From UHGV virus genome UHGV-1541059: DNA of 47,311 bases; one strand, written 5' to 3'. This document shows, piece by piece, positions 5,354 through 27,536 of the stretch. Source of the stretch: a virus. Numbering within the stretch: the first letter of the stretch is position 1; each line of letters begins with the position of its first letter. A model generated the notes under the pieces. That model made no database searches. It was given only the letters and a program-made list of their open reading frames with translations, and was not told where the DNA came from. Made by a program: the position numbers and the translations under genes.

Positions 5354-5371
5354 TATGGTATAGCCTCCGGT

Positions 5372-8197: not shown

Positions 8198-8306
8198 CTT
8201 GTTTTTCTCCTATGGTTAGAGTGAACGCGCGGGCGGGCATCCCATTAGCATTAGATAGCAGTGACTGACCGCTCAACAGATCCCGCCGTTGCGTGATATT
8301 TGTTTT

Positions 8307-8339
8307 TCGCTTCGCAGCGACACCGGATTTTTAAAGAGC
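8307..8339 (-). promoter_or_regulatory. nutR-like element (boxA-like GCTCTTTAAAAA plus GNRA-loop hairpin) on the leftward transcript
   Basis: Minus strand reads GCTCTTTAAAAATCCGGTG then hairpin TCGCT-GCGA-AGCGA; lies between divergent promoter region and first leftward gene. Confidence 0.35.
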
Positions 8340-8417
8340 TTAAGGTAAGTGCCTTTTTGTGCCTTCCGTTATCTTTTTCCTTGCGTCTTTGCAAGTATGG
8401 CCTTACCTTGTCTGCAA

Positions 8418-8430
8418 GTTTACAAAATGG
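8418..8430 (+). promoter_or_regulatory. Copy of recurrent motif GTTTACAAAATGG in the divergent cI / leftward-operon control region
   Basis: Exact 13-mer; candidate promoter hexamers on both strands nearby. Confidence 0.4.
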
Positions 8431-8503: not shown

Positions 8504-9151
8504 ATGAAAACAAAATGGTATGACTTAGCAAAGCAGCTCATGCGGGCGCAGGGCATGAGTCAGGATTCACTCGCAGATCTCATGGGGATAACTAAAGGCG
8601 GCCTGTCACACTGGCTTAACGGTCGCCGCGAGCCAAATCTTGAAGATATTGCGCGGATTATGCGGGCGCTTGGGCGTCGTCAGTTCACTGTTACACATGA
8701 TGGTATGGTCATTGATGATTCTGTTTCTAATACACTTCAGGCCGCACCGCCGCGTGATTTAGGTAGTTACCCGGTTATTGACTGGAAGGACACAGTAAAC
8801 AATATGGATGACACAAGGCGATCAGCATTACCACACGTTACGACTAGCGTTATTTGTTCAGATGATAGTTACTGGCTGGTTGCCAAAGGTGAATCAATGA
8901 ACGCGCCGCAGGGGTTAAGCATCCCGGCGGGGACGATGATACTTGTTGACCCGCACGCGCCAGCTATTGACGGCAAACTGGTTATAGCCCAGCTTGAGGA
9001 AGGGCAGATACCGACGTTTAAACAGTTGATTATTGATGGAGGTCAAAGGCTTTTACGTTCGCTCAATCCTCTGTATCCGCCAATCCCTATGAATCCAGAA
9101 TCAAAAATTATAGGCGTGGTGGTTGATGCGAAGATCGTAAACCTGCCATAA
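8504..9151 (+). CDS. cI: CI-like repressor (HTH plus S24 LexA-type autopeptidase domain)
   Basis: N-terminal HTH (MSQDSLADLMGITKGGLSHWLNG), C-terminal S24 motifs (GESM ... DGKLVIAQL ... FKQL). Confidence 0.85.
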   Translation: MKTKWYDLAKQLMRAQGMSQDSLADLMGITKGGLSHWLNGRREPNLEDIARIMRALGRRQFTVTHDGMVIDDSVSNTLQAAPPRDLGSYPVIDWKDTVNNMDDTRRSALPHVTTSVICSDDSYWLVAKGESMNAPQGLSIPAGTMILVDPHAPAIDGKLVIAQLEEGQIPTFKQLIIDGGQRLLRSLNPLYPPIPMNPESKIIGVVVDAKIVNLP

Positions 9152-9182: not shown

Positions 9183-9260
9183 CCTGGAAAACGCCAAAAC
9201 GTAAACAGAAAACGTTATTTATTGTTTAAATATCAATGACATATAAAATATTTTAAAAAA

Positions 9261-9303
9261 GTATACAAAATGGATTGACTCGATGTTTTACGGGGCGTAT
9301 ATT
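9261..9303 (+). promoter_or_regulatory. Strong sigma70 promoter (pL-like) with the 13-bp motif abutting the -35
   Basis: GTATACAAAATGG-a-TTGACT-17 bp-TATATT. Confidence 0.55.
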
Positions 9304-9557
9304 GCGAGTCAAAGGAAGGGCGCAGGTAACAAAAGCAACTTCCTGGCACTTTAAAAATCAGGCTTAACACCTTGTCAACCGTGGAGTAACTCCCCGATTG
9401 GGGACCGAAAGCGGCACTGATAACAAGGCGCATGGGGTGTTTAAAGCGTTACATCCCCCACGAAACCGCACGCAAGGCGACGAGTCAGCTTGCTTGGAGT
9501 GAGCAAGGTCACGCCGGGAACGGCGATGATTGCGGGATTAGTTGAAAGATGTTAAGC

Positions 9558-9651: not shown

Positions 9652-9942
9652 ATGAGCGTTACAATTATATATGGTAAATGTGATAGCAAAATGAATGCCA
9701 GGGAACGCAGAAGGATAAAAAGAGAAAACGAAAGAAAATCATCACCTGCAATCAATAAAACAGACAATGTGGATAAAGCTATTCGATTTGCAAACGAGGA
9801 AAGATGCAAACCAAATAGCATTAAAGAACGTCGCAAAGGATCAGTAAAATGGTATACGGAAAATGAAAGCGGCAGCTACTACCACGCAACGCAACCACGA
9901 CATTTAGGGGAAAAACCCCTGGATAAAGTCCGCTATCATTAA
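9652..9942 (+). CDS. N-like transcription antiterminator (P22 gene 24-like, arginine-rich motif)
   Basis: MSVTIIYGK...NARERRRIKRENERK resembles the P22 gp24 N-terminus and ARM; position after pL/nut. Confidence 0.55.
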   Translation: MSVTIIYGKCDSKMNARERRRIKRENERKSSPAINKTDNVDKAIRFANEERCKPNSIKERRKGSVKWYTENESGSYYHATQPRHLGEKPLDKVRYH

Positions 9943-15617: not shown

Positions 15618-16101
15618 CAGGTTATTAGCCTGCGTTTATGTCGCCGTTTTCGTGATCATCAATCTTATTGTTAACCATTGCGGCCCGTGGGTAATTCCGA
15701 TCACCACGGTAGCCGCCGTGTGTGTCAATATGATGATCCGTGACTTCCTGTTATATGACGGCGGCTTGAGATGGTCGGCTACAACATGCGCCGCCGCTGG
15801 CGCAATCACTGTACTGATAAATTACGACGCCGGAATGGTGGCGATCGCGTCATTTGTCGCGGTTGTTTCCGGTGCGCTTATTTCTGGCGGCGTTTACCGG
15901 GTTTTGCCTGGTGACTTTGATTCTAAACGTTGGCCTGCAAATATAGCGTCCGCCATAGGTGATGCGTTAATTTTCCCGACGCTATCGTTTATGGCATTTA
16001 TGCCGGAAATATCAGCTATGCAATTCATCTCAAAAATGGCAGCGGTAACGGTGATTACTATCATCATGCGCCGCTATTTCACGTTTGAGGGTAGAAAATG
16101 A
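15598..16101 (+). CDS. Polytopic inner-membrane protein; weak resemblance to VUT/YhhQ-type transporters
   Basis: 4-5 predicted TM helices; start at MERVTIDRLL; sits between the two methyltransferase genes. Confidence 0.45.
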   Translation: MERVTIDRLLACVYVAVFVIINLIVNHCGPWVIPITTVAAVCVNMMIRDFLLYDGGLRWSATTCAAAGAITVLINYDAGMVAIASFVAVVSGALISGGVYRVLPGDFDSKRWPANIASAIGDALIFPTLSFMAFMPEISAMQFISKMAAVTVITIIMRRYFTFEGRK

Positions 16102-16862
16102 GCGGGCTTAGAAATTGGGTGGTGTGGTCGCTGTATGACGGCAGCGGGTACGCTGTTAAAGATTGGGCGGACGCTGGTTATAAATGTTATTGCTTCAACT
16201 ATGACGGCGCTAATCACGGTGATTATGACGGGGTAAAAATAATTCATCCAAATATTGAATATGTTAACGTCTGGATTGATAGCCATTTTCTGGTAATGTT
16301 CTCCCCTGAATTGTCTGTATATCCAGATCCTGACATTATCCTGGGCTTTCCTCCATGCGACAATCTCGCCGTTTCAGGCGCTCGCTGGTTCGCTGATAAA
16401 CGGAAAAAAGACCCTGACTTCCAGGTGAAGGCGGCGCATAACGCAAAACTGGTAGAAAAACTGGCGAATATGCATAACGTGCCGTGGATGGTGGAAAATC
16501 CGGTGGGCGCACTGTCAACGTTATGGCGTAAACCGGATTTTATCTTCAATCCGTGCGCTTACGGTGGCTACCTGCCGGAAGATGATAAGCATCCCGCTTT
16601 CCCGGAATACATTGCCGACCGCGACGCCTACACGAAGAAAACTTGTATTTGGTGCGGGAATGGATTTAAGCAGCCGCTATTCCGTCCTGTGCCGATGCCA
16701 GATGAATGGGAAGACAGTAAGCAGCACGCGAAGTTAGGCGGAAAATCAAAGCGAACAAAGATGATCCGCTCACTAACGCCGCGTGGCTTCGCCCGTGCTG
16801 TATTCCTGGCTAACGACCGGGCCATCAATCGTACTACGCTCAACCGCGTTTTGCCGGACTGA
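16098..16862 (+). CDS. Compact DNA cytosine-5 methyltransferase-like protein
   Basis: Motif IV-like GFPPCDNLAVSG and motif VI-like MVENPVG in canonical order; only 254 aa. Confidence 0.5.
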   Translation: MSGLRNWVVWSLYDGSGYAVKDWADAGYKCYCFNYDGANHGDYDGVKIIHPNIEYVNVWIDSHFLVMFSPELSVYPDPDIILGFPPCDNLAVSGARWFADKRKKDPDFQVKAAHNAKLVEKLANMHNVPWMVENPVGALSTLWRKPDFIFNPCAYGGYLPEDDKHPAFPEYIADRDAYTKKTCIWCGNGFKQPLFRPVPMPDEWEDSKQHAKLGGKSKRTKMIRSLTPRGFARAVFLANDRAINRTTLNRVLPD

Positions 16863-16863
16863 A

Positions 16864-16944
16864 GTTTACAAAATGGCGTCATTGTGTGATGAATGTCACA
16901 TAATGGCGCTTTGCACCTTGTTAGCACGTATCCATTTTGTATAC
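16864..16944. promoter_or_regulatory. Control region upstream of ninF/ninG: inverted pair of the 13-bp motif flanking a CRP-like palindrome
   Basis: GTTTACAAAATGG (16864-16876), TGTGATGAATGTCACA (16885-16900), reverse-complement motif CCATTTTGTATAC (16932-16944). Confidence 0.4.
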
Positions 16945-17021
16945 TTCAAGCAAACAAAATGCTCTTTAAAAATCCGGCAGCGCTGAAATGCGTAGAAATC
17001 ACCTGAAAAGGAGAGAGCATT

Positions 17022-17198
17022 ATGCCTTTTGATAATTACCAATGGCATGACGACTATGAACGAGAAAGCGTTATGCGTGCAATGTGCAATGTATGCAGCA
17101 CGAAGAAAGGAGGCTGTAACGAGTGCAACGAATGCTTAGAACATTGGCTAAGGGCCGGACACGCCGAAAGGCTGAACGAAACAGAGAATCAAAAATAA
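17022..17198 (+). CDS. ninF: NinF-like small Cys-rich protein (58 aa)
   Basis: ERESVMRAMCNVCSTKKGGCNECNEC resembles lambda NinF as recalled; sits directly upstream of ninG; GGAG RBS. Confidence 0.45.
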   Translation: MPFDNYQWHDDYERESVMRAMCNVCSTKKGGCNECNECLEHWLRAGHAERLNETENQK

Positions 17199-17212
17199 TC
17201 GGGGTGGTTTTT

Positions 17213-17818
17213 ATGCAAAACCCTAAAAAACCCATAAGACGCCGTTGCAAGTGCTGCGGCGTTTTTTTTGAGCCTAAATATCATAATCAAACGTGGTGCA
17301 GCGATGAATGTCTGGAAGAACTGAAGTTTGACCAGCTATGCCGCGACCGTGAAAAGGCTATGAAGGCGATGGAACGGAAGAAACGCCGCGATAGCCAGCG
17401 GGAAGAACGCAACCGGAAGCGGAAACAGTTAAATCCGCGCAGCTACTGGATCAAGCAAGTTCAAAACGTATTCAACGCCTATATCCGCGAACGTGACGCG
17501 CGCTTGCCGTGTATATCCTGCGGGACTTACTACGGTGAGCAATGCGGGTGGGATGCGGGCCATTACAGGACGGTTGCCGCCGCAGGACACCTTCGCTTTA
17601 ACGAGGATAATTGCCATAAACAATGCAGGCACTGCAACCAGACATTAGACGGAAACATAGGAGGGTATCGCCCAGCACTGATTCGAAAAATTGGCCTCGC
17701 CAGGGTGGTAGCTCTGGAGAACAACAACGATACGCATAAATGGACGATCGCAGAATGTAAGGAGCTAATAAACATCTATCAGGCTAAATTGGACGCCTTA
17801 AGGAGAAAGGCAGCATGA
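17213..17818 (+). CDS. ninG: NinG (Rap) recombination protein
   Basis: Cys-rich NinG pattern (CKCCGVFF...WCSDEC...CISCG...HYRTVAAAGHLRFNEDNCHKQCRHCN); track ORF 17123 trimmed to ATG 17213. Confidence 0.8.
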   Translation: MQNPKKPIRRRCKCCGVFFEPKYHNQTWCSDECLEELKFDQLCRDREKAMKAMERKKRRDSQREERNRKRKQLNPRSYWIKQVQNVFNAYIRERDARLPCISCGTYYGEQCGWDAGHYRTVAAAGHLRFNEDNCHKQCRHCNQTLDGNIGGYRPALIRKIGLARVVALENNNDTHKWTIAECKELINIYQAKLDALRRKAA

Positions 17819-18222
17819 ATGAATATTCTTTTAGCCTGCCTTACCCGCCATCGAATAATCGCTATTACCGACATTCGCGCGGTTTTCACTATATCAGCAA
17901 AGTGGGGAAGGAATACAGGGAACAGGTAAGAGACATCATCGAGCTATTAAATTTAAATATTAACCTACCTTGCCGACTGGCAATTGCCATTTACGCCGCG
18001 CCGCCGGATAACCGGATCAGAGATCTGGACAATATCCCTAAATGCCTTTTTGACAGCCTTACTTATGCCGGATTCTGGAAGGATGACGGGCAAATCGACT
18101 CAATAAAAATTGTTCGCTGCCGGAAGGTAAAAGGCGGACGCTTGTTTATTAAGATCCGCGAACGCGGCGACCTACTACCGGATATTGACGAATACGCGAC
18201 TAATATGTGGGGTGAGCAATGA
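17815..18222 (+). CDS. rusA: RusA Holliday-junction resolvase
   Basis: FSLPYPPSNNRYYR...IPKCLFDSLTYAGFWKDDGQI matches the RusA family. Confidence 0.85.
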   Translation: MNEYSFSLPYPPSNNRYYRHSRGFHYISKVGKEYREQVRDIIELLNLNINLPCRLAIAIYAAPPDNRIRDLDNIPKCLFDSLTYAGFWKDDGQIDSIKIVRCRKVKGGRLFIKIRERGDLLPDIDEYATNMWGEQ

Positions 18223-18401
18223 AAAACGAAGTTAAAGATCTGCAAATAGATATTCAGCGCGACGAGCGTGATTTAGAGACGGTCCGACAAATCCAGGCTT
18301 TCCACATGCGCGAATTACTTGCGCTGAAAGAGTTCGAAAGAAAGCTGGTGCAATCCATTTCTGATCGTAAACGGCTGGCGGCACGTTATGAGGGCAAATA
18401 A
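18219..18401 (+). CDS. Hypothetical small protein (60 aa)
   Basis: Coupled between rusA and Q. Confidence 0.4.
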   Translation: MKNEVKDLQIDIQRDERDLETVRQIQAFHMRELLALKEFERKLVQSISDRKRLAARYEGK

Positions 18402-19123
18402 TGAATTTAGAATCCATTCTAAAATTCCACTTTCCTAAATCACCGCGATTATCTGACGAAAGCCGGGGCACGTCCCCGGACGCTCTTAATACGACGGATG
18501 CGCTAACCGCTGCGGGTATGGCGCAATCGCGCGTAGAGCTTGGTTATAGCGCTTTTTTAGGGAAGATGGAACTATCACAAGCCGAAAAACACAGGGCCGT
18601 AGTTTTGCTTACAGAGCGTTTAAGGGCTATGGCGAAAGATTACGAATACGTGATGGAGTTAAACGAGGATCAGCGCAATGAACTTATTATTCTTGTTGCC
18701 GTTTTCGCGTTTCGGGATTATTGCCAGAGTGCCGCGACGGAAAAAACTTGCATGGAGTGCGGCGGATATAAATTTACGTTTGATGAATACGGTGAAAAAC
18801 ACCTTTGTAAAAAATGCAAGGGGCATGGGACAGTTCGCAATCATTGTAAACAATGCAAGGGTCGTGGCGAAGTACCGGATAAAACAGCCAGCGAAGCGGC
18901 GGAAATGCCAGTATTCAAAACGTGCCAGCATTGCGGCGGGCGCGGGTACTCGCGTTTCCCGGTAGATCTCGTCCGGCAGGCGGTTAATCAGCTTGTTTTC
19001 CCGGTAAGCCGATCAACATGGTGGAAGAAATACCGGGCTTTCTATGAAGACGCCATTGCTGAATTGTTCAAAGAAGAGGCGCGGGCTGACAACGAAATTA
19101 AACGAGTGACGCGGGGTGAATAA
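18401..19123 (+). CDS. Q: Lambda-type late antiterminator Q
   Basis: N-terminus MNLESILKFHFPKSPRLSDESRGTS resembles lambda Q MRLESVAKFHSPKSPMMSDSPRAT as recalled; zinc-binding Cys pairs; ...GYSRFPV... Confidence 0.8.
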   Translation: MNLESILKFHFPKSPRLSDESRGTSPDALNTTDALTAAGMAQSRVELGYSAFLGKMELSQAEKHRAVVLLTERLRAMAKDYEYVMELNEDQRNELIILVAVFAFRDYCQSAATEKTCMECGGYKFTFDEYGEKHLCKKCKGHGTVRNHCKQCKGRGEVPDKTASEAAEMPVFKTCQHCGGRGYSRFPVDLVRQAVNQLVFPVSRSTWWKKYRAFYEDAIAELFKEEARADNEIKRVTRGE

Positions 19124-19323
19124 TGGATAAGCTGGAAATAAACGATCAGTTTGCCGTTATCTTATTTGAAGATAAAACAGGCGGCGCATGGTGTAAGAAA
19201 GTCACTGGCGCGGAAGCGCGTTTAATATTGGGTATGGCAAGCGCGTTAAATGAAGGCGAATTGCCAGCCATCCCTATTAAGCCTGTAAAAATTTACAAGC
19301 GTGGTGACGATGATGAAGCCTAA
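19123..19323 (+). CDS. Hypothetical protein (66 aa)
   Basis: First gene of small-ORF block downstream of Q. Confidence 0.4.
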   Translation: MDKLEINDQFAVILFEDKTGGAWCKKVTGAEARLILGMASALNEGELPAIPIKPVKIYKRGDDDEA

Positions 19324-19582
19324 ATTAAAAGAACATCTATTTGCAAAGCTGGTTAATGACCTGACATTATCCGCGCGGTTGTGCCGTGATACACAACAAT
19401 TGAGGGCGTGGATAGCAAGGGATTTAAAAAAATATATTGAGCCTGGCGGGCCAGGTGGCGAAATCACGATGGACGAAGCCATCAAGCGCCGTTCGGCTGA
19501 ATGGTCAGTGAGTAACACCGGATTAACCGGATACATTGAAGGCTATAACGACTGTTTACAGGATCATAGCGATGGCAAGTAA
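19310..19582 (+). CDS. Hypothetical protein (about 90 aa)
   Basis: ORF; start uncertain (GTG 19301 or ATG 19310). Confidence 0.4.
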   Translation: MMKPKLKEHLFAKLVNDLTLSARLCRDTQQLRAWIARDLKKYIEPGGPGGEITMDEAIKRRSAEWSVSNTGLTGYIEGYNDCLQDHSDGK

Positions 19583-19883
19583 AGACCTGCATTTGAATCT
19601 GAAAGGGGAATATTTCCACGCCATATGGACTGGAAAGAAGGTGGAGGAATACCGGCTTTATAATGACTATTGGCGTAAACGTCTGGAAGGGCGGGAATAT
19701 GAACGCCTGATTATTAAATGGGGATACCCTGCCAACCACGAAAAACACAGGATTATTAACCTTCCTTATTTTGGGTACGAAGTAAAAACTATCACTCATC
19801 CATTATTCGGCCCTGATCCTGTTAAGGTATTCGCAATTAAATGTGACAGAAATTGGATGTTGAGAGGTAAAAATGAAAAGTAA
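19572..19883 (+). CDS. Hypothetical protein (about 103 aa)
   Basis: ORF; start at ATG 19572 (track uses TTG 19536). Confidence 0.4.
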   Translation: MASKDLHLNLKGEYFHAIWTGKKVEEYRLYNDYWRKRLEGREYERLIIKWGYPANHEKHRIINLPYFGYEVKTITHPLFGPDPVKVFAIKCDRNWMLRGKNEK

Positions 19884-20085
19884 CCGTAAACGCCTGGTAA
19901 GGGCGTATGACAAAGCGTTAAAGGCTTTTGATGATCTGCGACGCAATAAGCGCCAGCGCCGAAAATGGGCGCGATTACTTGTTAGTGAATGGCATGATGA
20001 GGATTTTTTCCTTGAGGCCAGACACATGACTCAGGATGACGCCGACTTATTAGCTGATGATAACGTTTATTATATGATGTGGTGA
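19873..20085 (+). CDS. Hypothetical protein (70 aa)
   Basis: Co-directional ORF. Confidence 0.4.
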   Translation: MKSNRKRLVRAYDKALKAFDDLRRNKRQRRKWARLLVSEWHDEDFFLEARHMTQDDADLLADDNVYYMMW

Positions 20086-20089
20086 CAAT

Positions 20090-20455
20090 ATGCAAATAAT
20101 CATTGATTATCTTTGCCACGCTGTAAATACGCTTTTTGGTTTTTATCAACAACCATTCCTCAAAGAATGGGACGAAATGCTCAATGACATTATTGATAAA
20201 GGGTTAATAGTTGAAGTCTGCGAGCTAACGATAAAATTCAATTACGAAGGCAAAGAATATGAAATATGGGTAGGCAATAGATGGTACTCATACGGGCATA
20301 TTTACTCAATTGGCGGTAAGTACATCAAACGCAGCCAGGAGTTCAGGCCACGATTCCGCACAATGCGCCGCCTGCGTGATCTGCATATAGGGATAGTTGA
20401 AGACCAGGAAGAGCGCGAACTATTCAAGATCTACGGGGATAAATCATGGAATTAA
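20090..20455 (+). CDS. Hypothetical protein (121 aa)
   Basis: Co-directional ORF. Confidence 0.45.
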   Translation: MQIIIDYLCHAVNTLFGFYQQPFLKEWDEMLNDIIDKGLIVEVCELTIKFNYEGKEYEIWVGNRWYSYGHIYSIGGKYIKRSQEFRPRFRTMRRLRDLHIGIVEDQEERELFKIYGDKSWN

Positions 20456-20676
20456 AAATCTGGCAGGCTATCGACGTTGTTGATAATGAATTGTCTATGT
20501 TCGCCACTAACGGGAAACGCGTTGTGATCGCTACATGGACACGTAACCATGATGATATTGCTTTTCGTCGCGCGGCGGCGGAATTGCTTTTCGCTGATGG
20601 CGGCTACACGATGAACATCGCACAGCTTGCCAGAATGAAAGATGAAAAGCTGGTGGATAGCTACATAACTGCTTAA
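20446..20676 (+). CDS. Hypothetical protein (76 aa)
   Basis: Co-directional ORF. Confidence 0.4.
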   Translation: MELKIWQAIDVVDNELSMFATNGKRVVIATWTRNHDDIAFRRAAAELLFADGGYTMNIAQLARMKDEKLVDSYITA

Positions 20677-20680
20677 CGAG

Positions 20681-20920
20681 GTGGATATGCGTATCTATGA
20701 ACACAAGCGGGATAAAACCCGCTTTTTTGTTCGTGCTGGCGTGGCGTACCAGTATCACGAATGCGGATACATTGAGGCACTTGCTTACGACCTGGATTTC
20801 GAACAAGAAAAAGAATGGTTTGATTTCAAGATTTACCGGAAGCGCAAGCCAACGCGCGACGAACGACACGCCATCCGGGACTTTTTAATCAGCATAGACC
20901 GCTGGGAGACAGACGAATGA
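20681..20920 (+). CDS. Hypothetical protein (79 aa)
   Basis: Co-directional ORF. Confidence 0.4.
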   Translation: MDMRIYEHKRDKTRFFVRAGVAYQYHECGYIEALAYDLDFEQEKEWFDFKIYRKRKPTRDERHAIRDFLISIDRWETDE

Positions 20921-21144
20921 AAGTTAAATTCTTGCACGATCACGGATACCCGTCATTAAAACGCGTAGTAGGGGAAACGGTAGACGTTGTTCACTCTGAT
21001 GATGTGACCTGCGTCATTTTGGGTAAAGACCTTATTGCTCACGGTGCTGATGATAATTATATCAATCCGGCGTGGTCGTATACGTTCAGCCTGGGCGGCT
21101 TCGTGGGCGACAAGGGGCGCGGGCTGCAAGTAGTCGAGGGTTAA
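20917..21144 (+). CDS. Hypothetical protein (75 aa)
   Basis: Co-directional ORF. Confidence 0.4.
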   Translation: MKVKFLHDHGYPSLKRVVGETVDVVHSDDVTCVILGKDLIAHGADDNYINPAWSYTFSLGGFVGDKGRGLQVVEG

Positions 21145-21148
21145 TATC

Positions 21149-21397
21149 ATGGACGTTTACGAAGATCTATACCTTCAGACAAATACCCACACTTTTTATT
21201 TTCTGAAAAACGGCGTCGTATATCGCAGTGACGACGGGGTGATAATGAAGGAGTGGTTATTTAAGCGTAAAGACCTACTCGATGATCTGGTTTTTGCCGG
21301 GATATTCCGTAAACGTCCGGCTAACCTGGAAGAAGAAATGCTGATCGAGGTAATTAAAAATGAAAATCAAGGTAAGTTATTTCAGGGCGAAAGATAA
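21149..21397 (+). CDS. Hypothetical protein (82 aa)
   Basis: Co-directional ORF. Confidence 0.4.
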   Translation: MDVYEDLYLQTNTHTFYFLKNGVVYRSDDGVIMKEWLFKRKDLLDDLVFAGIFRKRPANLEEEMLIEVIKNENQGKLFQGER

Positions 21398-21611
21398 GGC
21401 CACTGGAAGACTAATGTCTATCCTGGTTAACGAAGCGAATTACATGTTTTTTCTTCAGCCGTGGTGTATTGCGGATCTTAATGACGATTATCGCCGTCAC
21501 GCTGCGCGGAGTGCTGTAGGGATGAAAGGCTGGCAACCGCGCGACATGGAAAATTATTGTGAATGGAAGCTGATAGCAAAATACACGGTCGATTATAAAG
21601 GGGTTTTCTGA
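21360..21611 (+). CDS. Hypothetical protein (83 aa; start uncertain)
   Basis: Overlaps upstream ORF by 38 nt; true start may be internal Met at 21414. Confidence 0.35.
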   Translation: MKIKVSYFRAKDKATGRLMSILVNEANYMFFLQPWCIADLNDDYRRHAARSAVGMKGWQPRDMENYCEWKLIAKYTVDYKGVF

Positions 21612-21835
21612 TGTTTGTAAAATGTATAAAGTCTCGTTTCCCTGATCTTTTTGTAGTTGATGAGATTTACGACATAGAAACGCTAATAAGCAGAACTAAC
21701 GATATTCAGTACATTTATGATGAAGACGGCGATCCGTGGTTTTTTTATAACGATCTTGATGGTAGCGGATTCGTTGATGGCGCTGGCGGTAATGGTGTGC
21801 CAGTTGCGCTATTTATAAATCCAAATAGGGAATGA
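21611..21835 (+). CDS. Small protein, member 1 of tandem paralog array
   Basis: KCIKSRF...QYIYDEDGDPWFFY. Confidence 0.45.
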   Translation: MFVKCIKSRFPDLFVVDEIYDIETLISRTNDIQYIYDEDGDPWFFYNDLDGSGFVDGAGGNGVPVALFINPNRE

Positions 21836-22047
21836 ATATCATGTATGTCAGATGCACTGAATCAAAAACATCATGCTTTGAGGTTGGTGGAATATATACC
21901 GTAGATCACCTGACTGGTGATGAGCTTAACACTCAATACATTAAAGACGACCACGGCGACGCGTGGCGCTATTGGGATTGCTACGCGCGTGGACACGTTA
22001 CCAGTCAGTTTGGTACGGAACCGATCGCGCGTTTTGTTAAGTGGTGA
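21832..22047 (+). CDS. Small protein, member 2 of tandem paralog array
   Basis: RCTESKTSCF...QYIKDDHGDAWRYW. Confidence 0.45.
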   Translation: MNIMYVRCTESKTSCFEVGGIYTVDHLTGDELNTQYIKDDHGDAWRYWDCYARGHVTSQFGTEPIARFVKW

Positions 22048-22056
22048 GGTAGTGTC

Positions 22057-22296
22057 ATGAGCCGGAATCAGAGATACCAGTGCACATATTCACGATGTAG
22101 CGCGTTTTTTAAGAATGGCAAGATCTACGAAGTCGGCGCGGCATTGGTTGACGCAAAGAATCAGGAATATATTCACGCCATTACTGACGACCAGGGCCAG
22201 TTATGGCGATTTTATAAGATGGGGTGTGGCACGGCGCTTGTTTATGCGCGTGCTGGTGGTGGTGCTTTTGCTGCATTTTCGTATGTAGGGGCGTAG
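22057..22296 (+). CDS. Small protein, member 3 of tandem paralog array
   Basis: QCTYSRCSAFF...EYIHAITDDQGQLWRFY. Confidence 0.45.
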   Translation: MSRNQRYQCTYSRCSAFFKNGKIYEVGAALVDAKNQEYIHAITDDQGQLWRFYKMGCGTALVYARAGGGAFAAFSYVGA

Positions 22297-22299
22297 AAA

Positions 22300-22515
22300 A
22301 TGATTTTAACGTGTCACGGATCTGATCTTGATTGTTTCGAAGACGGTTGCCAGTACGAAGCGGAAAAACCAGGCGGATTACCGAAAAACCCGTTTTTAGT
22401 CGTTACAGACACTTACGGTCACTTATGGTATGCAGCGCCCAGCAAGGCGCGCGGCTGGTGGCTGATTCAGAATGACGATCGCGAGGTTGTAGTTGCCTTC
22501 AGGCATGACGAATAA
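22300..22515 (+). CDS. Small protein, member 4 of tandem paralog array
   Basis: LTCHGSDLDCF...FLVVTDTYGHLWYA. Confidence 0.45.
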   Translation: MILTCHGSDLDCFEDGCQYEAEKPGGLPKNPFLVVTDTYGHLWYAAPSKARGWWLIQNDDREVVVAFRHDE

Positions 22516-22537
22516 AAAGCGTGATCTACTCCGCAAA

Positions 22538-22575
22538 GTATACAAAATGGCATTGTTTTGGCAGTGCCATTTTGT
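22538..22575. promoter_or_regulatory. Inverted repeat built from the 13-bp motif in a 100-bp intergenic gap
   Basis: GTATACAAAATGGCA-ttgttttggcag-TGCCATTTTGT, followed by TTATAAAG. Confidence 0.4.
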
Positions 22576-22616
22576 TATAAAGAAGCTGAAGAGAGAACGA
22601 TGCGGAGGGTAGAAAA

Positions 22617-22889
22617 ATGAAACGCTGGATTAACGAAGAAACAGAGTCCCGCTTCAATGCAATTTGGGATCTGATTGAAAAAGAGGACGGCGTTTCTAGT
22701 CCCTACCTGAACAATCTTGAGTTCCACTATGTAGAAGCGATGAACGCAGAGCATGACCACGAAGGCGGTGCTGATGAATTCGCTAAAAAATACGGCTTCG
22801 ATGATGCAAACCATATGATTAACAACGTGGTGATGCAGGCAGAGGAAGACTACGAATGCAAATCACTTGAATTCGCACGCATGGCATAA
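22617..22889 (+). CDS. Hypothetical acidic protein (90 aa)
   Basis: ORF with GGAGGG RBS. Confidence 0.45.
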   Translation: MKRWINEETESRFNAIWDLIEKEDGVSSPYLNNLEFHYVEAMNAEHDHEGGADEFAKKYGFDDANHMINNVVMQAEEDYECKSLEFARMA

Positions 22890-22899
22890 GGGGGGAAAC

Positions 22900-23040
22900 A
22901 TGAACGCTAACGCTAAATATCCTGCCTGGGTCTTTGAACTATACGCCCGCTATTTTGAAGAACTGGCACCAGGTGAAGAAGCATTAAGCATTGACGAATA
23001 CGCGGAGTGTTTAGGATTCAAGGGGGACGAAGAAGAATAA
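22900..23040 (+). CDS. Hypothetical 46-aa acidic protein
   Basis: GGGGGG RBS then ATG; below the 60-aa cutoff of the ORF track. Confidence 0.35.
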   Translation: MNANAKYPAWVFELYARYFEELAPGEEALSIDEYAECLGFKGDEEE

Positions 23041-23083
23041 AACACGGGGCCGGATGGCCCCATCAAATCAGAAGGGTGTAATT

Positions 23084-23383
23084 ATGAAAAGCGCTAAATT
23101 CATTGCGTGCTGTTTTGTTGAAGTCCCTAACGATGATGTTTTCTGCAATTATGAATTTAAAGACAGCTTAGGCAGATCTCATGTTGTTGTTGGTAAGCGC
23201 GGCGATTGGTTATATATAACCGATGACGATATGATTTTTACCAGAAATCAACTATTTCACATACACTCAGTAAATAATTATGCGCCAGTTGCCGCTATAT
23301 CCACAATGGATATGCATTCTAATATGTGGCTTGAAAAGGACACTGTGCATAAAGCGCGTAGCTTACCTGGTGCGGAGTATTAA
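23084..23383 (+). CDS. Hypothetical protein (about 99 aa)
   Basis: Start at MKSAKF (track ORF 23054). Confidence 0.4.
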   Translation: MKSAKFIACCFVEVPNDDVFCNYEFKDSLGRSHVVVGKRGDWLYITDDDMIFTRNQLFHIHSVNNYAPVAAISTMDMHSNMWLEKDTVHKARSLPGAEY

Positions 23384-23385
23384 TT

Positions 23386-23643
23386 ATGGTTGTATTTAGA
23401 CTATGGCGCGGAGTTAGTAGGCTTGATGGTGAATACAGCCGCGTCATTGAAGATGTTAATCGTGGGCGTTTTTATGAACTGGCATACAATGAGGAATTGG
23501 AAAAAACATACTTGAATGAATCTCTCCCTATGTGGCGAAAAATGGCTGGTGAAATAGCTTTCGCAATGCGCCACGGATTTTATACAGATCATAACACGCT
23601 AATTGATGCCGAACTGGTGACGACTCTTTACGAAGGAGAATAA
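23386..23643 (+). CDS. Hypothetical protein (85 aa)
   Basis: Co-directional ORF. Confidence 0.4.
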   Translation: MVVFRLWRGVSRLDGEYSRVIEDVNRGRFYELAYNEELEKTYLNESLPMWRKMAGEIAFAMRHGFYTDHNTLIDAELVTTLYEGE

Positions 23644-23646
23644 ACA

Positions 23647-23970
23647 ATGAGTAAATTTATCAGCGTTAAAGTTTTCCGTGGAACTATTCCAGAAGGTAAG
23701 AAATACGGTAAATTCAGCGGAATGCCTGGCGCATGTTTCCGTGTAGCAACGGAAGACGACGAGCATGTTAAATGCTTCCACGTATCGGAGCCGCCTTTTA
23801 ATCAAGAACATCTTGAAGACCCTGATAAAGTTAAAATGTTCGCTTTCGCTTCACTGATGCTTAATCCTTACCCTGCTCTTGATGTCGAATTGGTTGGCGC
23901 GGAAATGTTCGCGGAATACAAAATAACGGAAGCAGAAGACGGAGATTCTAAAATTGAGCGCATCAAATAG
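23647..23970 (+). CDS. Hypothetical protein (107 aa)
   Basis: Co-directional ORF. Confidence 0.4.
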   Translation: MSKFISVKVFRGTIPEGKKYGKFSGMPGACFRVATEDDEHVKCFHVSEPPFNQEHLEDPDKVKMFAFASLMLNPYPALDVELVGAEMFAEYKITEAEDGDSKIERIK

Positions 23971-24208
23971 ACCTTACAAAATCCGTTGTAAAGGTGAATA
24001 CCCTGGCTTTACGACTGGTTGCGAATACCTGGGCCACATTGGTTACGGCCCTTTCGGTGAGTTAGGGATGAATACGATTGATGACGATGGCGACAGCAGG
24101 ACGCTTGATCTTGATTCTGATGATTTCGAATACATCCCGCCGATAACTTACAGCGACGTTGATGATTTCATGGCTGAACATGAAGACGATGAGGATGATT
24201 ATGATTGA
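23954..24208 (+). CDS. Hypothetical acidic protein (84 aa)
   Basis: Co-directional ORF. Confidence 0.4.
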   Translation: MSASNRPYKIRCKGEYPGFTTGCEYLGHIGYGPFGELGMNTIDDDGDSRTLDLDSDDFEYIPPITYSDVDDFMAEHEDDEDDYD

Positions 24209-24398
24209 ATGCCTTATTATTGCGGTAGTTATCATTTACCTGGCTGGCGTCATTTTAATGGGCGCTTTTCAGAAAGCTGTTGATAGTGACGGCATTATTT
24301 GGTTCGAGCTAGTCTTCTGGCCTTTCATTACGATATACGCATTCGGTGACGCCATGCGCATTAACATCATGCGAGCCATTAAGGAGCGTAAGAAATGA
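24201..24398 (+). CDS. Small membrane protein (65 aa, two TM helices)
   Basis: MIECLIIAVVIIYLAGVILMGAF...IIWFELVFWPFITIYAFG; GAGGA RBS. Confidence 0.4.
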   Translation: MIECLIIAVVIIYLAGVILMGAFQKAVDSDGIIWFELVFWPFITIYAFGDAMRINIMRAIKERKK

Positions 24399-24577
24399 TT
24401 GAAGATGGCGTGTACGAAGCAACAGTAGTAGACGGGCTGTTTTACCGCGTGGAAGGCGATGATATTCGTATCCGCGTTGGCTGTGGCGAGTGGGTAGCGC
24501 CAATCATTAAGACGACGCGAGAAACAATTAAAATATTTCTTGATGCTGGTGAACTGGTAAAGGTTAGCGACCTATGA
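24395..24577 (+). CDS. Hypothetical protein (60 aa)
   Basis: MIEDGVYEATVVDG...; shares IEDGVY N-terminus with next gene. Confidence 0.4.
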   Translation: MIEDGVYEATVVDGLFYRVEGDDIRIRVGCGEWVAPIIKTTRETIKIFLDAGELVKVSDL

Positions 24578-24750
24578 ACGAGATCGAAGATGGTGTTTAT
24601 TCACATGCTTTGTTCGGTATAGCCTACATGCTAAAAGGCGACAAAGTGATGATTATGACTATTGATGACCCATACTGGAAAGATTCACTAATGAGCCGCG
24701 AGCAAATGCAATTATTACTTGATAATGGTCTGTTAATCAGGAAACTGTAG
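24574..24750 (+). CDS. Hypothetical protein (58 aa)
   Basis: MNEIEDGVYSHALF...; ATGA-coupled to upstream gene. Confidence 0.35.
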   Translation: MNEIEDGVYSHALFGIAYMLKGDKVMIMTIDDPYWKDSLMSREQMQLLLDNGLLIRKL

Positions 24751-24813
24751 ACATAATCGCGCATAAAAAACAAATAGATTAAAATATTTCCTAACAATGC
24801 GAAATTGTAATTA

Positions 24814-24840
24814 CCCGGCACCGCGCCGGGTTTTTGCTTT
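24814..24840 (+). terminator. Strong intrinsic terminator immediately upstream of holin (tR'-like, candidate Q target)
   Basis: 6-bp GC stem CCCGGC-accgc-GCCGGG followed by TTTTTGCTTT. Confidence 0.65.
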
Positions 24841-24855
24841 GTTGGAGGTAAATCT

Positions 24856-25056
24856 ATGTTCGACAGAATACGGGAGGCGTGCGCGTATGTGACTGGGGCC
24901 GTAACTGCTTTTTTCGGCGCGATAACCATCAATGATATTGCCGTCTTTGTGGGTATCTTATCAACCATAGGCACATTTGCCGTTAACTATTACTTCAAAT
25001 CACAGGAGAACAAGCGAGCGCAAGAGGAACACGACGCGCGAATGGGGAATAAGTAA
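24856..25056 (+). CDS. Holin (class II pinholin-like)
   Basis: 66 aa, two TM helices, charged C-terminus [19 protein letters not shown] similar to phage 21 S-type pinholins; GGAGG RBS. Confidence 0.8.
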
Positions 25057-25057
25057 C

Positions 25058-25549
25058 ATGATTAGCCAATCGCTGAAGAATAAGATTATTGCTGCGGCGG
25101 CTGGTGGGGCGATCGCTATTGCGGCGGTGATGGTTAAACCATTAGAGGGCGTGGAGTACGATCCCTATCGTGATGTTATCGGCGTATGGACCGTTTGCTA
25201 TGGTCACACCGGAAAAGACATCATGCTTGGTAAGACTTACACGCAATCAGAATGCGATGCTTTGTTAAACAAGGATCTCCACAAAACCGCAAAAGCGATT
25301 GACCCATATATTAAAGTCGAAATATCAGATTTTACCCGCGCGGCGCTTTATTCATTCGCCTATAACGTAGGCGCTACCAACTTCAAAACATCAACCTTAT
25401 TGAAGCTACTCAATGACGGTAAGAAATCAGAAGCGTGCGCACAGCTTAAACGCTGGATATACGCTGGCGGTAAGAAGTGGCAAGGCCTGGTTAACCGCCG
25501 TGATGTTGAATATGCCGTTTGCGAATGGGGGGAAACGTGGACAAGGTGA
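25058..25549 (+). CDS. SAR endolysin (lysozyme with N-terminal signal-anchor-release domain)
   Basis: N-terminal [26 protein letters not shown] then lysozyme catalytic region ...[16 protein letters not shown]... Confidence 0.8.
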
Positions 25550-26007
25550 AGGCGTTAATCATCGCCGTTGTTGTTTGCATTATTGCCGGACTTACCGCCG
25601 TAACGTGTTATTACCAGGGTGAGGCGGCAAGGTTACAGGAAGAAGTCACGGTGACGCAAGGTGCACTAAAAACAGCAAGTAACACTATTCAGCAGATGAA
25701 GGAGCGAAACGCCGAACTGTCAAAACTTGATAAGAGGTATCACGATGAGATTAAAGCTATCAGATCTGACATTGCTGATCTGCGTGCTGGTATTGATAGC
25801 GGTGCTATCCGGTTGCACGTCAACGCAATACCCGTGCGAGTGTCAGACGCCACCGGAACCGCCAGCAGCATTGATGGAGCCGCCTGTAGACTCACTCCCG
25901 ACGCTGAATCGGCTTATCTATCCCTCAGAGAACAACTAAAAGAGAAAGACGCGAAGATCACCGGATTGCAGGACTACATCAAGACGCAGTGCATACGCAA
26001 AGAATAA
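25537..26007 (+). CDS. Rz: Rz i-spanin
   Basis: N-terminal TM helix, coiled-coil periplasmic domain, C-terminal Cys; GTG start with GGGGGG RBS (start uncertain, track 25519). Confidence 0.7.
25745..25939 (+). CDS. Rz1: Rz1 o-spanin lipoprotein embedded in Rz (+1 frame)
   Basis: [24 protein letters not shown] lipobox then Pro-rich mature peptide; AAGAGG RBS. Confidence 0.7.
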   Translation: MRLKLSDLTLLICVLVLIAVLSGCTSTQYPCECQTPPEPPAALMEPPVDSLPTLNRLIYPSENN

Positions 26008-26285
26008 CAGCGCGTGGACGTGTCGCCGTTTCCGCCAGCCAGCCATAACCGGGCCAATCCTTCCCGCGAGCGACGGCGGAAAAGTCAAAAACACGTAATA
26101 CCGGATCAACAGTCCCATTAACAGGTCGGCGCTACCTGGGTAGAAGAAAGCGCCATTCACCAATTTTATAAAATTCTGGAAACGGTACTGATGAAGCGCC
26201 GTTTTCAGTGTTTTATAGCTGTTTTCACTCCCTGCGGTGTCGAGTTTTGCGGGGGTTATATTTTTCAGAATAGGAGATTATTCTG

Positions 26286-26870
26286 ATGGCTAAGGCTAAA
26301 GGCATTAAATTGCCTCAATTCAAAGTACCGCTCTTTGAGCATACAACCGTTTTCTTTTGCCCGACCCGCGAGATGTTTTATGAATTTTGCGAAAAGGCAG
26401 GAATTCCAATTGAGCCTGATTTCGAACTGGCAGGAGGATTGACGCTTACTTGCACTGGCGAGAAAGGCGGTAACTTCTACGTGATCGCAGTATTCGACAA
26501 TGAGTTAGGAACGCTGGTACATGAATGCGCTCACACCACATTCCACGTTTTAAGTGATGTAGGCGTAGTGGCGACCACTGATCCAACTCACCCGGCGAAT
26601 GAGACTTACGCTTACATGGTGGGGCGCATCTTTGATGCATTTTTCCCTATCCTGGCAGAATCAAACGAAGCACAGGTAGCGGCAATGCAGGCGGCTGAAG
26701 TCGTCGAGCAGGCATTGGAGCAGGCAGAAAAGGCGACTGATGCAGCAGAACAGGCGGTAGAACGGGCAGATGAGCCGAAAGAAGAGAAAAAACCAGCTAA
26801 GAAAGGCAAACGTAAGCCTAAAGCAAAAGAAGCGCTTGTACCGCGTGTAATGAGCTTTAAGCGGGGGTGA
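26286..26870 (+). CDS. HExxH-motif protein with Ala/Glu/Lys-rich low-complexity C-terminal tail
   Basis: LVHECAHTTFHV (HExxH) in a roughly 120-aa N-domain, then an AEQA/EEKKPAKKGKRKPK tail. Confidence 0.5.
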   Translation: MAKAKGIKLPQFKVPLFEHTTVFFCPTREMFYEFCEKAGIPIEPDFELAGGLTLTCTGEKGGNFYVIAVFDNELGTLVHECAHTTFHVLSDVGVVATTDPTHPANETYAYMVGRIFDAFFPILAESNEAQVAAMQAAEVVEQALEQAEKATDAAEQAVERADEPKEEKKPAKKGKRKPKAKEALVPRVMSFKRG

Positions 26871-26872
26871 TT

Positions 26873-26968
26873 ATGGACGCTTATGCAATAGCCGGATTGA
26901 TCGGCGTTTCTGTATTCCTGGTATGTTTTGCTATCGCTGTACTGATAACCGTAAAAAGCAAATCATGA
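26873..26968 (+). CDS. Mini-gene 1 of 12: 31-aa single-TM peptide MDAYAIAGLIGVSVFLVCFAIAVLITVKSKS
   Basis: Begins 3 nt after upstream stop; hydrophobic helix. Confidence 0.4.
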   Translation: MDAYAIAGLIGVSVFLVCFAIAVLITVKSKS

Positions 26969-27039
26969 ATGCCTACGATCTCATTTGGTTATTTGTGCTC
27001 ATCATAGGTATTGGCGTGAACATTTACAGGCTATGGTGA
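26965..27039 (+). CDS. Mini-gene 2 of 12: 24-aa peptide MNAYDLIWLFVLIIGIGVNIYRLW
   Basis: ATGA overlap with mini-gene 1; paralog of mini-genes 4 and 6. Confidence 0.4.
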   Translation: MNAYDLIWLFVLIIGIGVNIYRLW

Positions 27040-27043
27040 AAAT

Positions 27044-27118
27044 ATGATTGACCCGCTCATTATCCTTTCTGCCTGCGTCGCTGTATGGCTGGCGATCATG
27101 ATATTCATTGAAAGCTGA
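27044..27118 (+). CDS. Mini-gene 3 of 12: 24-aa peptide MIDPLIILSACVAVWLAIMIFIES
   Basis: Hydrophobic helix; 4-nt spacer from previous stop. Confidence 0.4.
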   Translation: MIDPLIILSACVAVWLAIMIFIES

Positions 27119-27129
27119 AGGTATTCACC

Positions 27130-27204
27130 ATGAATATTTACGATCTCATCTGGTGGTCGTTGGTCGCCGTCATTATCTATTTCTGGTGGAAAAATGTTGT
27201 ATAG
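27130..27204 (+). CDS. Mini-gene 4 of 12: 24-aa peptide MNIYDLIWWSLVAVIIYFWWKNVV
   Basis: Paralog of mini-gene 2 (MNxYDLIW). Confidence 0.4.
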   Translation: MNIYDLIWWSLVAVIIYFWWKNVV

Positions 27205-27212
27205 GTGACGGC

Positions 27213-27311
27213 ATGGATATATTCGAATTACTGGCGATTATGTGCGGCATGATGTTAGGCATTGTCGCCATAATTATCATCATCGGCCTTGTTATGGGTA
27301 GCATCAAATGA
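27213..27311 (+). CDS. Mini-gene 5 of 12: 32-aa peptide MDIFELLAIMCGMMLGIVAIIIIIGLVMGSIK
   Basis: C-terminal part of track ORF 27108-27311, whose TTG-started N-terminus overlaps mini-genes 3-4. Confidence 0.4.
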   Translation: MDIFELLAIMCGMMLGIVAIIIIIGLVMGSIK

Positions 27312-27388
27312 ACGCATACGAAATGCTATTGCTGGTGGCTGTAGTTGTAGTCATTGCCGTAGATGTTTATCGGGAGTTTAAAAAATGA
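27308..27388 (+). CDS. Mini-gene 6 of 12: 26-aa peptide MNAYEMLLLVAVVVVIAVDVYREFKK
   Basis: ATGA overlap; paralog of mini-gene 2. Confidence 0.4.
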   Translation: MNAYEMLLLVAVVVVIAVDVYREFKK

Positions 27389-27453
27389 AATGGCTTGATT
27401 TCTTTTTCCTGATTGTTGCGATTGTTCTCACCATGACCTCGCTGACTCAATAG
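27385..27453 (+). CDS. Mini-gene 7 of 12: 22-aa peptide MKWLDFFFLIVAIVLTMTSLTQ
   Basis: ATGA overlap; hydrophobic helix. Confidence 0.4.
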   Translation: MKWLDFFFLIVAIVLTMTSLTQ

Positions 27454-27461
27454 GTGAGCGA

Positions 27462-27536
27462 ATGGATGTTATCGAAGCCGTATTATTCGTATGCATCGCC
27501 GCGTTAATTATCGTAGGGGTGATTATCAATGTCTGA
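27462..27536 (+). CDS. Mini-gene 8 of 12: 24-aa peptide MDVIEAVLFVCIAALIIVGVIINV
   Basis: Hydrophobic helix. Confidence 0.4.
   Translation: MDVIEAVLFVCIAALIIVGVIINV

Follow-up and report, generated by a model that had tools for sequence, protein, structure and literature searches.

Descriptions of the Q switch of lambda-type phages treat the Q gene and the PR', qut and terminator sequences as one adjacent cassette (PMC9388147), and the hexamer AACGAT at +1 to +6 is a sigma70-dependent pause element required by Q-lambda (PMC4005639). In seven reference phages with a lambda-type Q (lambda, P22, phi80, HK225, SfV, SEN22 and Eho59), +1 lies 60-79 nt from the Q stop codon. Lambda PR' reads TTGACT-17-TAAATT-TGACTC-AACGAT, and the P22 record places the late RNA start at the first A of AACGAT and the terminator from +31. 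Here we describe a different arrangement in the virus genome UHGV-1541059, a stretch of 47,311 nucleotides that we refer to as the window. Its lambda-family Q gene runs directly into a block of 23 small genes, and a conserved candidate PR'/qut site stands beyond that block, just before the holin gene. We propose that the Q cassette is physically split, with the block in an N-dependent early operon and Q acting at the distant PR'/qut, a reading that we consider probable.

Between positions 17000 and 26200, nucleotide comparison shows the window to be 95% identical to Escherichia phage MagusPhagus and 88-91% identical to mEp010, mEp554, mEp044, mEp013, mEp515 and mEp021. This identity, and a synteny with mEp021-type genomes that includes the CI-like repressor, the N-like Gp17, three nut sites, Q and the lysis module, lead us to assign the window to the temperate E. 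coli phages of the mEpimmI (mEp021-like) group. PMC11893012 describes the group as Nus-dependent, with a 'Q-lambda-like' protein, three nut sites and an N-like protein, Gp17, that mediates early antitermination in mEp021, and as being as prevalent as lambdoid phages among human faecal isolates. The group is present in 35 of 5,426 complete E. coli genomes. For comparison we used the GenBank records of mEp021 and the mEpimmI phages (MH706966, PP180001-5 and PP925836) and scanned IMG/VR with Q, which returned 45 loci whose Q proteins are 85-98% identical; with the GenBank phages, 51 loci were compared. A scan of genome contigs with Q gave no match.

A lambda-family Q gene is followed by a block of small genes

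The Q gene (18401..19123, plus strand) encodes 240 aa that match PF03589 (E 3.8e-30, Pfam) and phrog_127 (1.3e-78, PHROGs), align with lambda Q at 34% identity over 99% coverage (tblastn), and match the Q-lambda chains of PDB 7UBM/7UBN (E 1.4e-38) over residues 1-113 and 148-238. The N-terminal 44 residues align well with the Q-lambda family, including G39, and the protein has the N-terminal torus segment and the body and zinc-arm architecture of that family. We had first taken PF03589 as the phage-82 Q family. That reading was ruled out by the tblastn alignment to lambda Q, by the PDB match and by PMC9388147, in which PF03589 is the Q-lambda family; the same evidence makes the label 'lambda-type', given to this gene in an original prediction made from the sequence, the right one.

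Residues 114-147 (18740-18841) form a 34-aa insertion that brings an extra CxxC pair to the start of the zinc 'arm'. In our alignment the insertion is absent from lambda and P22 Q and has longer versions in phi80, SEN22, HK225, SfV and Eho59. The arm of Q-lambda contacts positions 11-13 of the Q-binding element (QBE) as well as sigma region 4, so the geometry of the site used by a long-arm Q may differ from that of Q-lambda. We also observed that this Q gives a DnaJ CXXCXGXG-type match (E 6e-6).

Downstream of Q, the open reading frame (ORF) list and the junction table place 23 plus-strand ORFs of 57-121 aa (g01-g23) at 19123-24750. The Q stop codon overlaps the start of g01, and every junction from ninG (17123) through g14 (22515) overlaps or leaves at most 9 nt. 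Within the block, the junctions overlap or leave gaps of at most 13 nt, with the one exception of a 101-nt gap at 22516-22616; this gap and the 105 nt at 24751-24855 are the only two that are non-coding. These are real genes and not noise: PHROG families, all of unknown function, match 20 of the 23 ORFs, and tblastn detects homologues of every one of the 23 in the corresponding interval of related phages. This bears out the earlier count of roughly 23 small genes between Q and the terminator and lysis cassette. Pfam gave nothing credible among the 20 block proteins scanned.

The genes of the block differ in how widely they are shared. A core, g06-g10 (20446..21611), is shared by all 50 other loci, with identities of 70-99%. 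To its left, the flexible part g01-g05 (19123..20455) is present in 36-48 of the 50 relatives; to its right, g11-g23 (21611..24750) form a mosaic that occurs in many combinations, its genes being present in 12-45 of them. The mEp021 block retains only g06-g10, g17, g18 and g23. The original prediction had regarded the block as a large accessory insertion. That description is too simple: five genes are universal and every one of the 51 relatives carries at least eight genes (1.9-6.7 kb) between Q and the late site proposed below. We read the block as a group-wide island with a universal five-gene core and mosaic flanks, not as a simple insertion. Throughout the mEpimmI group, 2-7 kb of fast-changing small genes stand between Q and its proposed site.

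The spacer before the holin carries a candidate PR'/qut site

The spacer of 105 nt (24751-24855) separates the block from the holin gene. In an alignment of seven phages, the flanking coding DNA is about 75% identical whereas 24768-24870 is almost invariant; the invariant part reads AAACAAAyAGAT-TAAAAT-ATTwCCT-AACAAT-GCGAAAyTGTAAyT and is followed by the terminator. From this region we propose, all on the plus strand, a PR' with its -35 position at 24757..24762 (TCGCGC); a promoter spacer at 24763..24779 holding a candidate Q-binding element, in which AAACAAA (24768-24774) is invariant in the alignment of relatives; a -10 hexamer, TAAAAT, at 24780..24785, invariant among the 35 distinct sequences from the 51 loci; and, 7 nt after TAAAAT, a sigma70-dependent pause element, AACAAT, at 24793..24798, likewise invariant in the 51 loci. 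At the level of sequence, AACAAT is a -10-like hexamer at about +1 to +6 from the predicted transcription start at 24792/24793.

Between this putative pause element and the first late gene lies a tR'-like intrinsic terminator, ACCCGGC-ACCGC-GCCGGGT followed by TTTTT (24813..24836, plus strand; stem-loop 24813-24831), identified by a terminator scan, by folding and by homology. The leader folds at -21.4 kcal/mol (z = -3.35). The terminator begins at about +21, and transcripts ending there are predicted to be about 44 nt long. The terminator is the homologue of TERM_5/t5 in the mEp021 record, which lies just before the holin gene and is listed as experimentally demonstrated (PMC11893012); among relatives the stem is conserved and the loop varies. 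The original prediction had placed the only strong terminator at 24814-24840, 15 bp before the holin ribosome-binding site. A terminator is indeed found there, but its U-tract ends about 7 nt before the holin GGAGG, and it has company in a hairpin in g07 (20705-20734) and another in the 101-nt gap (about 22541-22575).

Comparison of the spacer with the PR' regions of the seven reference phages revealed a shared layout: a -10 hexamer, 5-7 nt and AACNNT, which in those phages follow Q, match the window site. The similarity is greatest to the phages with the closest Q proteins (SEN22 AACAGTAGAAAT versus window AACAATGCGAAAT), the corresponding stretches being TAATAT-CATTTCT-AACAGT-AGAAAT in SEN22, TATAGT-CCTAT-AACACT-AGAAAT in Eho59 and TAAAAT-ATTTCCT-AACAAT-GCGAAAT in the window. 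Since the P22 terminator begins at +31, a very short leader has a precedent, of which the window arrangement would be a tighter version. The AAACAAA motif, at about -25 to -19, overlaps the annotated Q-binding position of phi80 PR' (-29 to -23) and has no sequence similarity to the lambda QBE.

Conservation of the two hexamers stands out against their surroundings. There are four versions of the 7 nt between them, and variation extends to the -35 region and to the flanking genes, with a mean pairwise identity of 52% for the 3' end of g23 and 87% for the 5' end of the holin gene. About 68% of the columns in 24763-24855 are invariant, and the chance that 12 pre-specified columns would all be so is, on this crude basis, roughly 0.01. 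The combination TAAAAT-N7-AACAAT plus terminator occurs once in the window. Across the 51 loci, the proposed site occurs once per locus and never next to Q, 1,924-6,722 nt (median 5,359) after the Q stop; the window, at 5,670 nt to +1, falls within this range, and synteny with relatives thus finds the split between Q and site fixed in all of them. A search for the site over 2.9 million IMG/VR contigs returned 46, of which 43 are the contigs that carry this Q; the other three have 1.3-3.8 kb of upstream DNA, too short to tell whether a Q is present. The site and this type of Q co-occur as expected of a Q/qut pair.

On this evidence, the late promoter/qut most probably lies at 24757-24798, which supplies a candidate for the site that had been left to be located. 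The original prediction also reported no convincing -35/-10 pair in 24740-24813. That is borne out in so far as the -35 TCGCGC matches the consensus at only two of six positions, and missing the pair is understandable with a -35 so degenerate, but the best candidate does lie within that interval. The window's -35 is the minority haplotype. TTGTGG, TTGTAG or TTGTAT occupies the position in 38 of the 51 loci, and TCGCGC in the other 13, which include the window and MagusPhagus.

Several observations weigh against the reading proposed here. The window and 12 relatives have TCGCGC as their -35 and no extended -10, and a consensus promoter scan does not report the proposed site. A rough position weight matrix (PWM), which is indicative only, ranks the window site 174th of 47,275 plus-strand positions (score 6.2); with the same matrix the majority-haplotype site scores 10.2 and ranks about 8th, and the window's pR ranks first on the strand. 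The Q-binding element cannot be defined from the sequence. A further point concerns g09 (21149-21397), whose product is 95% identical to mEp021_41 (L001 5827-6072), annotated 'virion structural protein'. This protein was detected by mass spectrometry in CsCl-purified mEp021 virions, and the authors, using a protein-language-model search, liken it to the RB69 RegA translational repressor (PMC11893012); a homologue in purified virions is unexpected for a purely early gene. Finally, the hairpins in the block would indicate only that the polymerase must be termination-resistant and do not tell N from Q as the source of that resistance. It is mainly the degenerate -35 of the window that keeps our confidence from rising higher.

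Two other interpretations of spacer sequences were rejected. A boxB-like leader hairpin, ACAAU-GCGAA-AUUGU (24794-24808), was considered as a nut site, but about half of the relatives have an uncompensated T-to-C change that disrupts its stem, and there is no boxA in front of it. (The GCGAA string of this hairpin recurs in the nutL-like site described below.) TAAAAT was also considered as the pause element of an upstream promoter with CATAAT (24752-57); CATAAT occurs in the minority haplotype only, and the expected Q-binding position would then fall in a variable two-haplotype segment that does not track the two Q clades.

The block may form the distal part of an N-dependent early operon

Upstream of Q, the window carries the parts of an early antitermination system. 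A near-consensus pR-like promoter, TTGACT-17-TATATT, is present at 9277-9303 (plus strand), and an N-like gene with an arginine-rich motif (phrog_271) lies at 9652-9942 (plus strand). We identified a boxA-like copy (nutR1) by sequence match at 9346-9362 (plus strand), a nutL-like site at 8303-8339 (minus strand) and a nutR2-like site at 16961..16997 (plus strand), the last two being 37-nt inverted matches of each other. The nutR2-like site, with the boxA-like GCTCTTTAAAAA at 16961-16972, stands upstream of ninF, ninG, rusA, Q and the block and just downstream of a methyltransferase gene (16098-16862); mEp021 nutR2 is likewise placed downstream of a methyltransferase gene (PMC11893012).

No plus-strand promoter-like site in 19123-24750 rose above chance in a consensus scan or with the rough PWM. 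Given this result, the lack of a gap after Q, and the N-like gene and nut sites upstream, the simplest reading is that the block constitutes the distal part of the N-dependent early operon. The candidate PR'/qut just before the terminator would, in addition, leave the block upstream of the late promoter and so in the early transcript. The original prediction had put the block there too, and comparative sequence, by placing the PR'/qut candidate downstream of the block, lends this weight. We infer the transcript assignments given here, including that of the block, from sequence.

Under this model, early rightward transcription would start at the pR-like promoter near 9277-9303, and the N-like protein, acting at nutR1 and nutR2, would make the early polymerase termination-resistant. 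The early transcript would run through the nin-like genes, Q and the 23 translationally coupled small genes without an intergenic break, and the block genes would be delayed-early, dependent on N and not on Q. The PR'/qut on which Q would then act, in trans, lies 5.67 kb beyond the Q gene. There, a polymerase starting at about 24793 from TAAAAT would pause through sigma70 on AACAAT at +1 to +6 and take up Q from its position around AAACAAA in the A-rich spacer, and the Q-loaded polymerase would read through the terminator (+21 to +44) into the holin, lysis, terminase and structural genes. The mechanism proposed is lambda's; the layout alone is unusual, and no new mechanism is invoked.

The block, or its right half, could instead be expressed as separate units from one or more internal promoters, for example in the gap at 22516-22616. 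This gap folds at -33.4 kcal/mol (z = -5.0) and contains an element (22536..22583, plus strand), found by folding and by counting of 15-mers and present in 40 of 53 loci, in which the 15-mer AAGTATACAAAATGG forms the 5' arm of a 15-bp hairpin (about 22541-22575). The hairpin might terminate a unit lying upstream, and mEp554, mEp044 and mEp010 carry ARNold terminator annotations at the corresponding position. Other copies of this 15-mer adjoin the -35 of pR (9259) and lie near nutL and nutR2, and the gap copy is followed by TTGTTT-17-TATAAA. However, TATAAA is without the conserved final T, relatives have TATATA in its place, the element is missing from 13 of the 53 loci, and no promoter-like site in the block exceeds chance. 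We consider internal promoters unlikely, and they would in any case add to early readthrough and not replace it.

The 15-mer itself is clearly overrepresented. As AAGTWTACAAAATGG, it has five exact copies in the window against 0.26 expected, at 8416-8430(+), 9259-9273(+), 16862-16876(+), 16932-16946(-) and 22536-22550(+), and near-matches at 5368, 41947(-) and 43835(-); none of 100 shuffles reached eight matches. Its copies lie beside the repressor gene, against the pR -35, as an inverted pair flanking a t4-like hairpin just before nutR2, and in the sole gap of the block. The 15-mer may bind a regulator, act as an RNA element or mark a module boundary; we found no description of it in the searched parts of PMC11893012.

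A second alternative concerns the spacer itself, which might not be an active promoter. Early polymerases would then pass the terminator into the late genes, having been modified by N or having taken up Q at the two -10-like hexamers once sigma70 had rebound. A usable -35 is missing in 13 of the 51 genomes, among them that of the plaque-forming MagusPhagus, two -10-like hexamers stand invariant 7 nt apart, and nothing before the spacer would bar early transcription. Against this, the layout matches that of true PR' promoters and, in 38 of 51 genomes, TAAAAT is spaced 17 bp from a TTG-containing -35; N-modified complexes would need no Q; and the complexes for which Q-lambda-type loading has been established are promoter-proximal and contain sigma (PMC9388147, PMC4005639). 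In our judgement this alternative has a small chance of being right. A slim chance attaches to the idea that Q is loaded, at least partly, on early-operon polymerases after sigma70 rebinds TAAAAT/AACAAT, the transcript that makes Q becoming the late transcript without fresh initiation. If true, it would mean that Q can load on promoter-distal elongation complexes.

It is very improbable that a Q-dependent late promoter stands right after Q and places the block in the late operon, as with stx and its neighbours in Stx phages: a relaxed pattern search did find GTGACG-16-TAAGCT-7-AACGAT (19106-19146; 5 nt after the Q stop), with the lambda pause hexamer AACGAT, and a post-Q late promoter would fit the virion-associated protein encoded in the block, but this look-alike is wholly coding (Val-Thr codons of Q and codons 3-8 of g01), varies among relatives in its -10-like part at codon third positions (TAAGTT, TAAGAT, TAAACT, CAAGTT), does not occur in 11 of 54 loci, those in which another gene comes first, is followed by no terminator and belongs to a pattern so frequent by chance that shuffles predict 11 hits where the window has 6, while the overlap of Q and g01 leaves no leader after Q. 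The lambda-like hexamer pair within it (19128-19146) was rejected as a coding-sequence coincidence, at most a relic.

Features within and around the block

The g07 hairpin resembles an intrinsic terminator, AAGCGGG-ATAAAA-CCCGCTT followed by T6, located in the 5' end of the gene (codons 7-15; 20705..20734, plus strand). It has a 7-bp GC-rich stem, folds at -19 kcal/mol (z = -5.2) and is present in all 53 loci. One variant (GCGCG...CGCGC) retains the stem through synonymous changes on both sides, which suggests selection on RNA structure within the coding region. At the 13-nt g16/g17 junction we noted a GC-rich hairpin, GGGGCC-GGAT-GGCCCC (23044-23063), which has a T-run on the minus strand only and overlaps the likely ribosome-binding region of g17.

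Two near-consensus promoter-like sequences lie antisense to the block and point toward Q. TTTGCA-16-TATAAT (20096-20069, minus strand) is found in 50 of 53 loci; it overlaps the g04/g05 junction, and coding constraint may therefore explain its conservation. TTTACA-18-TATAAT (21621-21592, minus strand) matches at 11 of 12 positions and occurs in 4 loci only. Lambda and P22 have an antisense promoter inside Q, which these sites recall.

Of the block proteins, 17 of 23 are acidic, with net charges of -18 for g20 and -13 for g15, and g21 is a membrane protein. Tandem paralogue sets are formed by g11/g12/g13 (phrog_31142; 21611-22296) and g22/g23 (phrog_15318; 24395-24750), and by eye g14 and g20 share the pattern C...G.Y...DD.G..W. 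PGAP names of its homologues make g03 an ASCH-domain ('RNA-binding') protein; these homologues occur in ea-type regions of Stx and P22-like phages and also in unrelated phages, and homologues of g08 occur in rV5-like virulent phages. The profile of the block resembles nin, ea and other early accessory regions of phages, and the block appears to draw on the same stock of small accessory genes that other phages carry in their early regions. That its genes serve in host takeover or anti-defence is a guess. Rfam (E <= 1, 16500-27500) returned no family, so the spacer is not a known RNA element, and the same interval yielded no tRNAs and thus no tRNA cargo of the Stx-phage type.

Downstream of the terminator, the lysis cassette (24856..26007, plus strand) comprises the first late genes, assigned by Pfam as holin (24856-25056; PF16080), endolysin (25058-25549; PF00959) and Rz-like spanin (25519-26007; PF03245). 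Within the Rz-like gene, in the +1 frame, an ORF at 25727-25939 with a lipoprotein-type signal (…LSGC) is probably an Rz1-type outer-membrane spanin. At the other end of the early region, the CI-like repressor gene (phrog_4; 8504-9151, plus strand) lies directly upstream of the early rightward promoter and on the same strand. In lambda, the repressor gene and the early rightward promoter are divergent.

Significance

If the proposed site is right, a Q gene need not adjoin its site of action. The mEpimmI group would also gain a concrete late promoter, which we did not find described in the searched parts of PMC11893012; nor did the passages returned by our term searches yield a discussion of the late promoter or of its separation from Q. 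The post-Q island would then be a set of genes expressed in lytic growth before Q and independently of it, and a reasonable place to seek host-takeover or anti-defence functions.

Comparison with known phage systems

Among known systems, mEp021 and the mEpimmI group agree with the window in gene order and share its N-like/nut system, its Q and lysis genes and the terminator t5. The post-Q block differs in size, with 1.9 kb and 8 genes in mEp021 versus 5.6 kb and 23 genes in the window.

Outside the group, the closest Q proteins are those of SEN22, a Salmonella phage, and Eho59, an Erwinia phage, at about 37-42% identity, and a long-arm Q with the extra CxxC is common to both and the window. 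By contrast, their sites lie 72-78 nt after Q and have a good -35 (TTTACA). The window Q is 33-34% identical to lambda Q and P22 gp23 and differs from both in its 34-aa insertion, with extra cysteines in the zinc arm.

The proposed site resembles the lambda and P22 cassettes in its order of elements: a -10 hexamer, 6-7 nt, AAC..T at +1 to +6, then an intrinsic terminator and the lysis genes. A short leader is shared with P22, the terminator beginning at +31 in P22 and at about +21 in the window. The distance from Q to the site is 78 nt in both lambda and P22 but 5,670 nt in the window. Further differences from lambda are that the window's -35 is weak or absent, that no TTGACT -35-like element stands between the -10 and the pause element, and that the sequence of the spacer, with its candidate QBE, is unrelated.

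The block itself invites comparison with the lambda nin region, which likewise consists of small, tightly packed and translationally coupled ORFs, mostly of unknown function and mosaic among relatives. The N-dependent rightward early transcript that carries nin would have its counterpart in the one proposed here for the block. Genes of the ninF, ninG and rusA types are in fact present just upstream of Q in the window. The island, however, lies downstream of Q and has a universal five-gene core, whereas nin lies upstream of Q, between the replication gene P and Q.

Finally, Stx phages of the 933W type resemble the window in carrying several kb of cargo genes between Q and the holin gene. In Stx phages, PR' and tR' directly follow Q and the cargo is therefore in the late, Q-dependent transcript. 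In the window, by contrast, no conserved promoter/terminator unit follows Q, and the cargo precedes the only PR'/terminator unit that is lambda-like.

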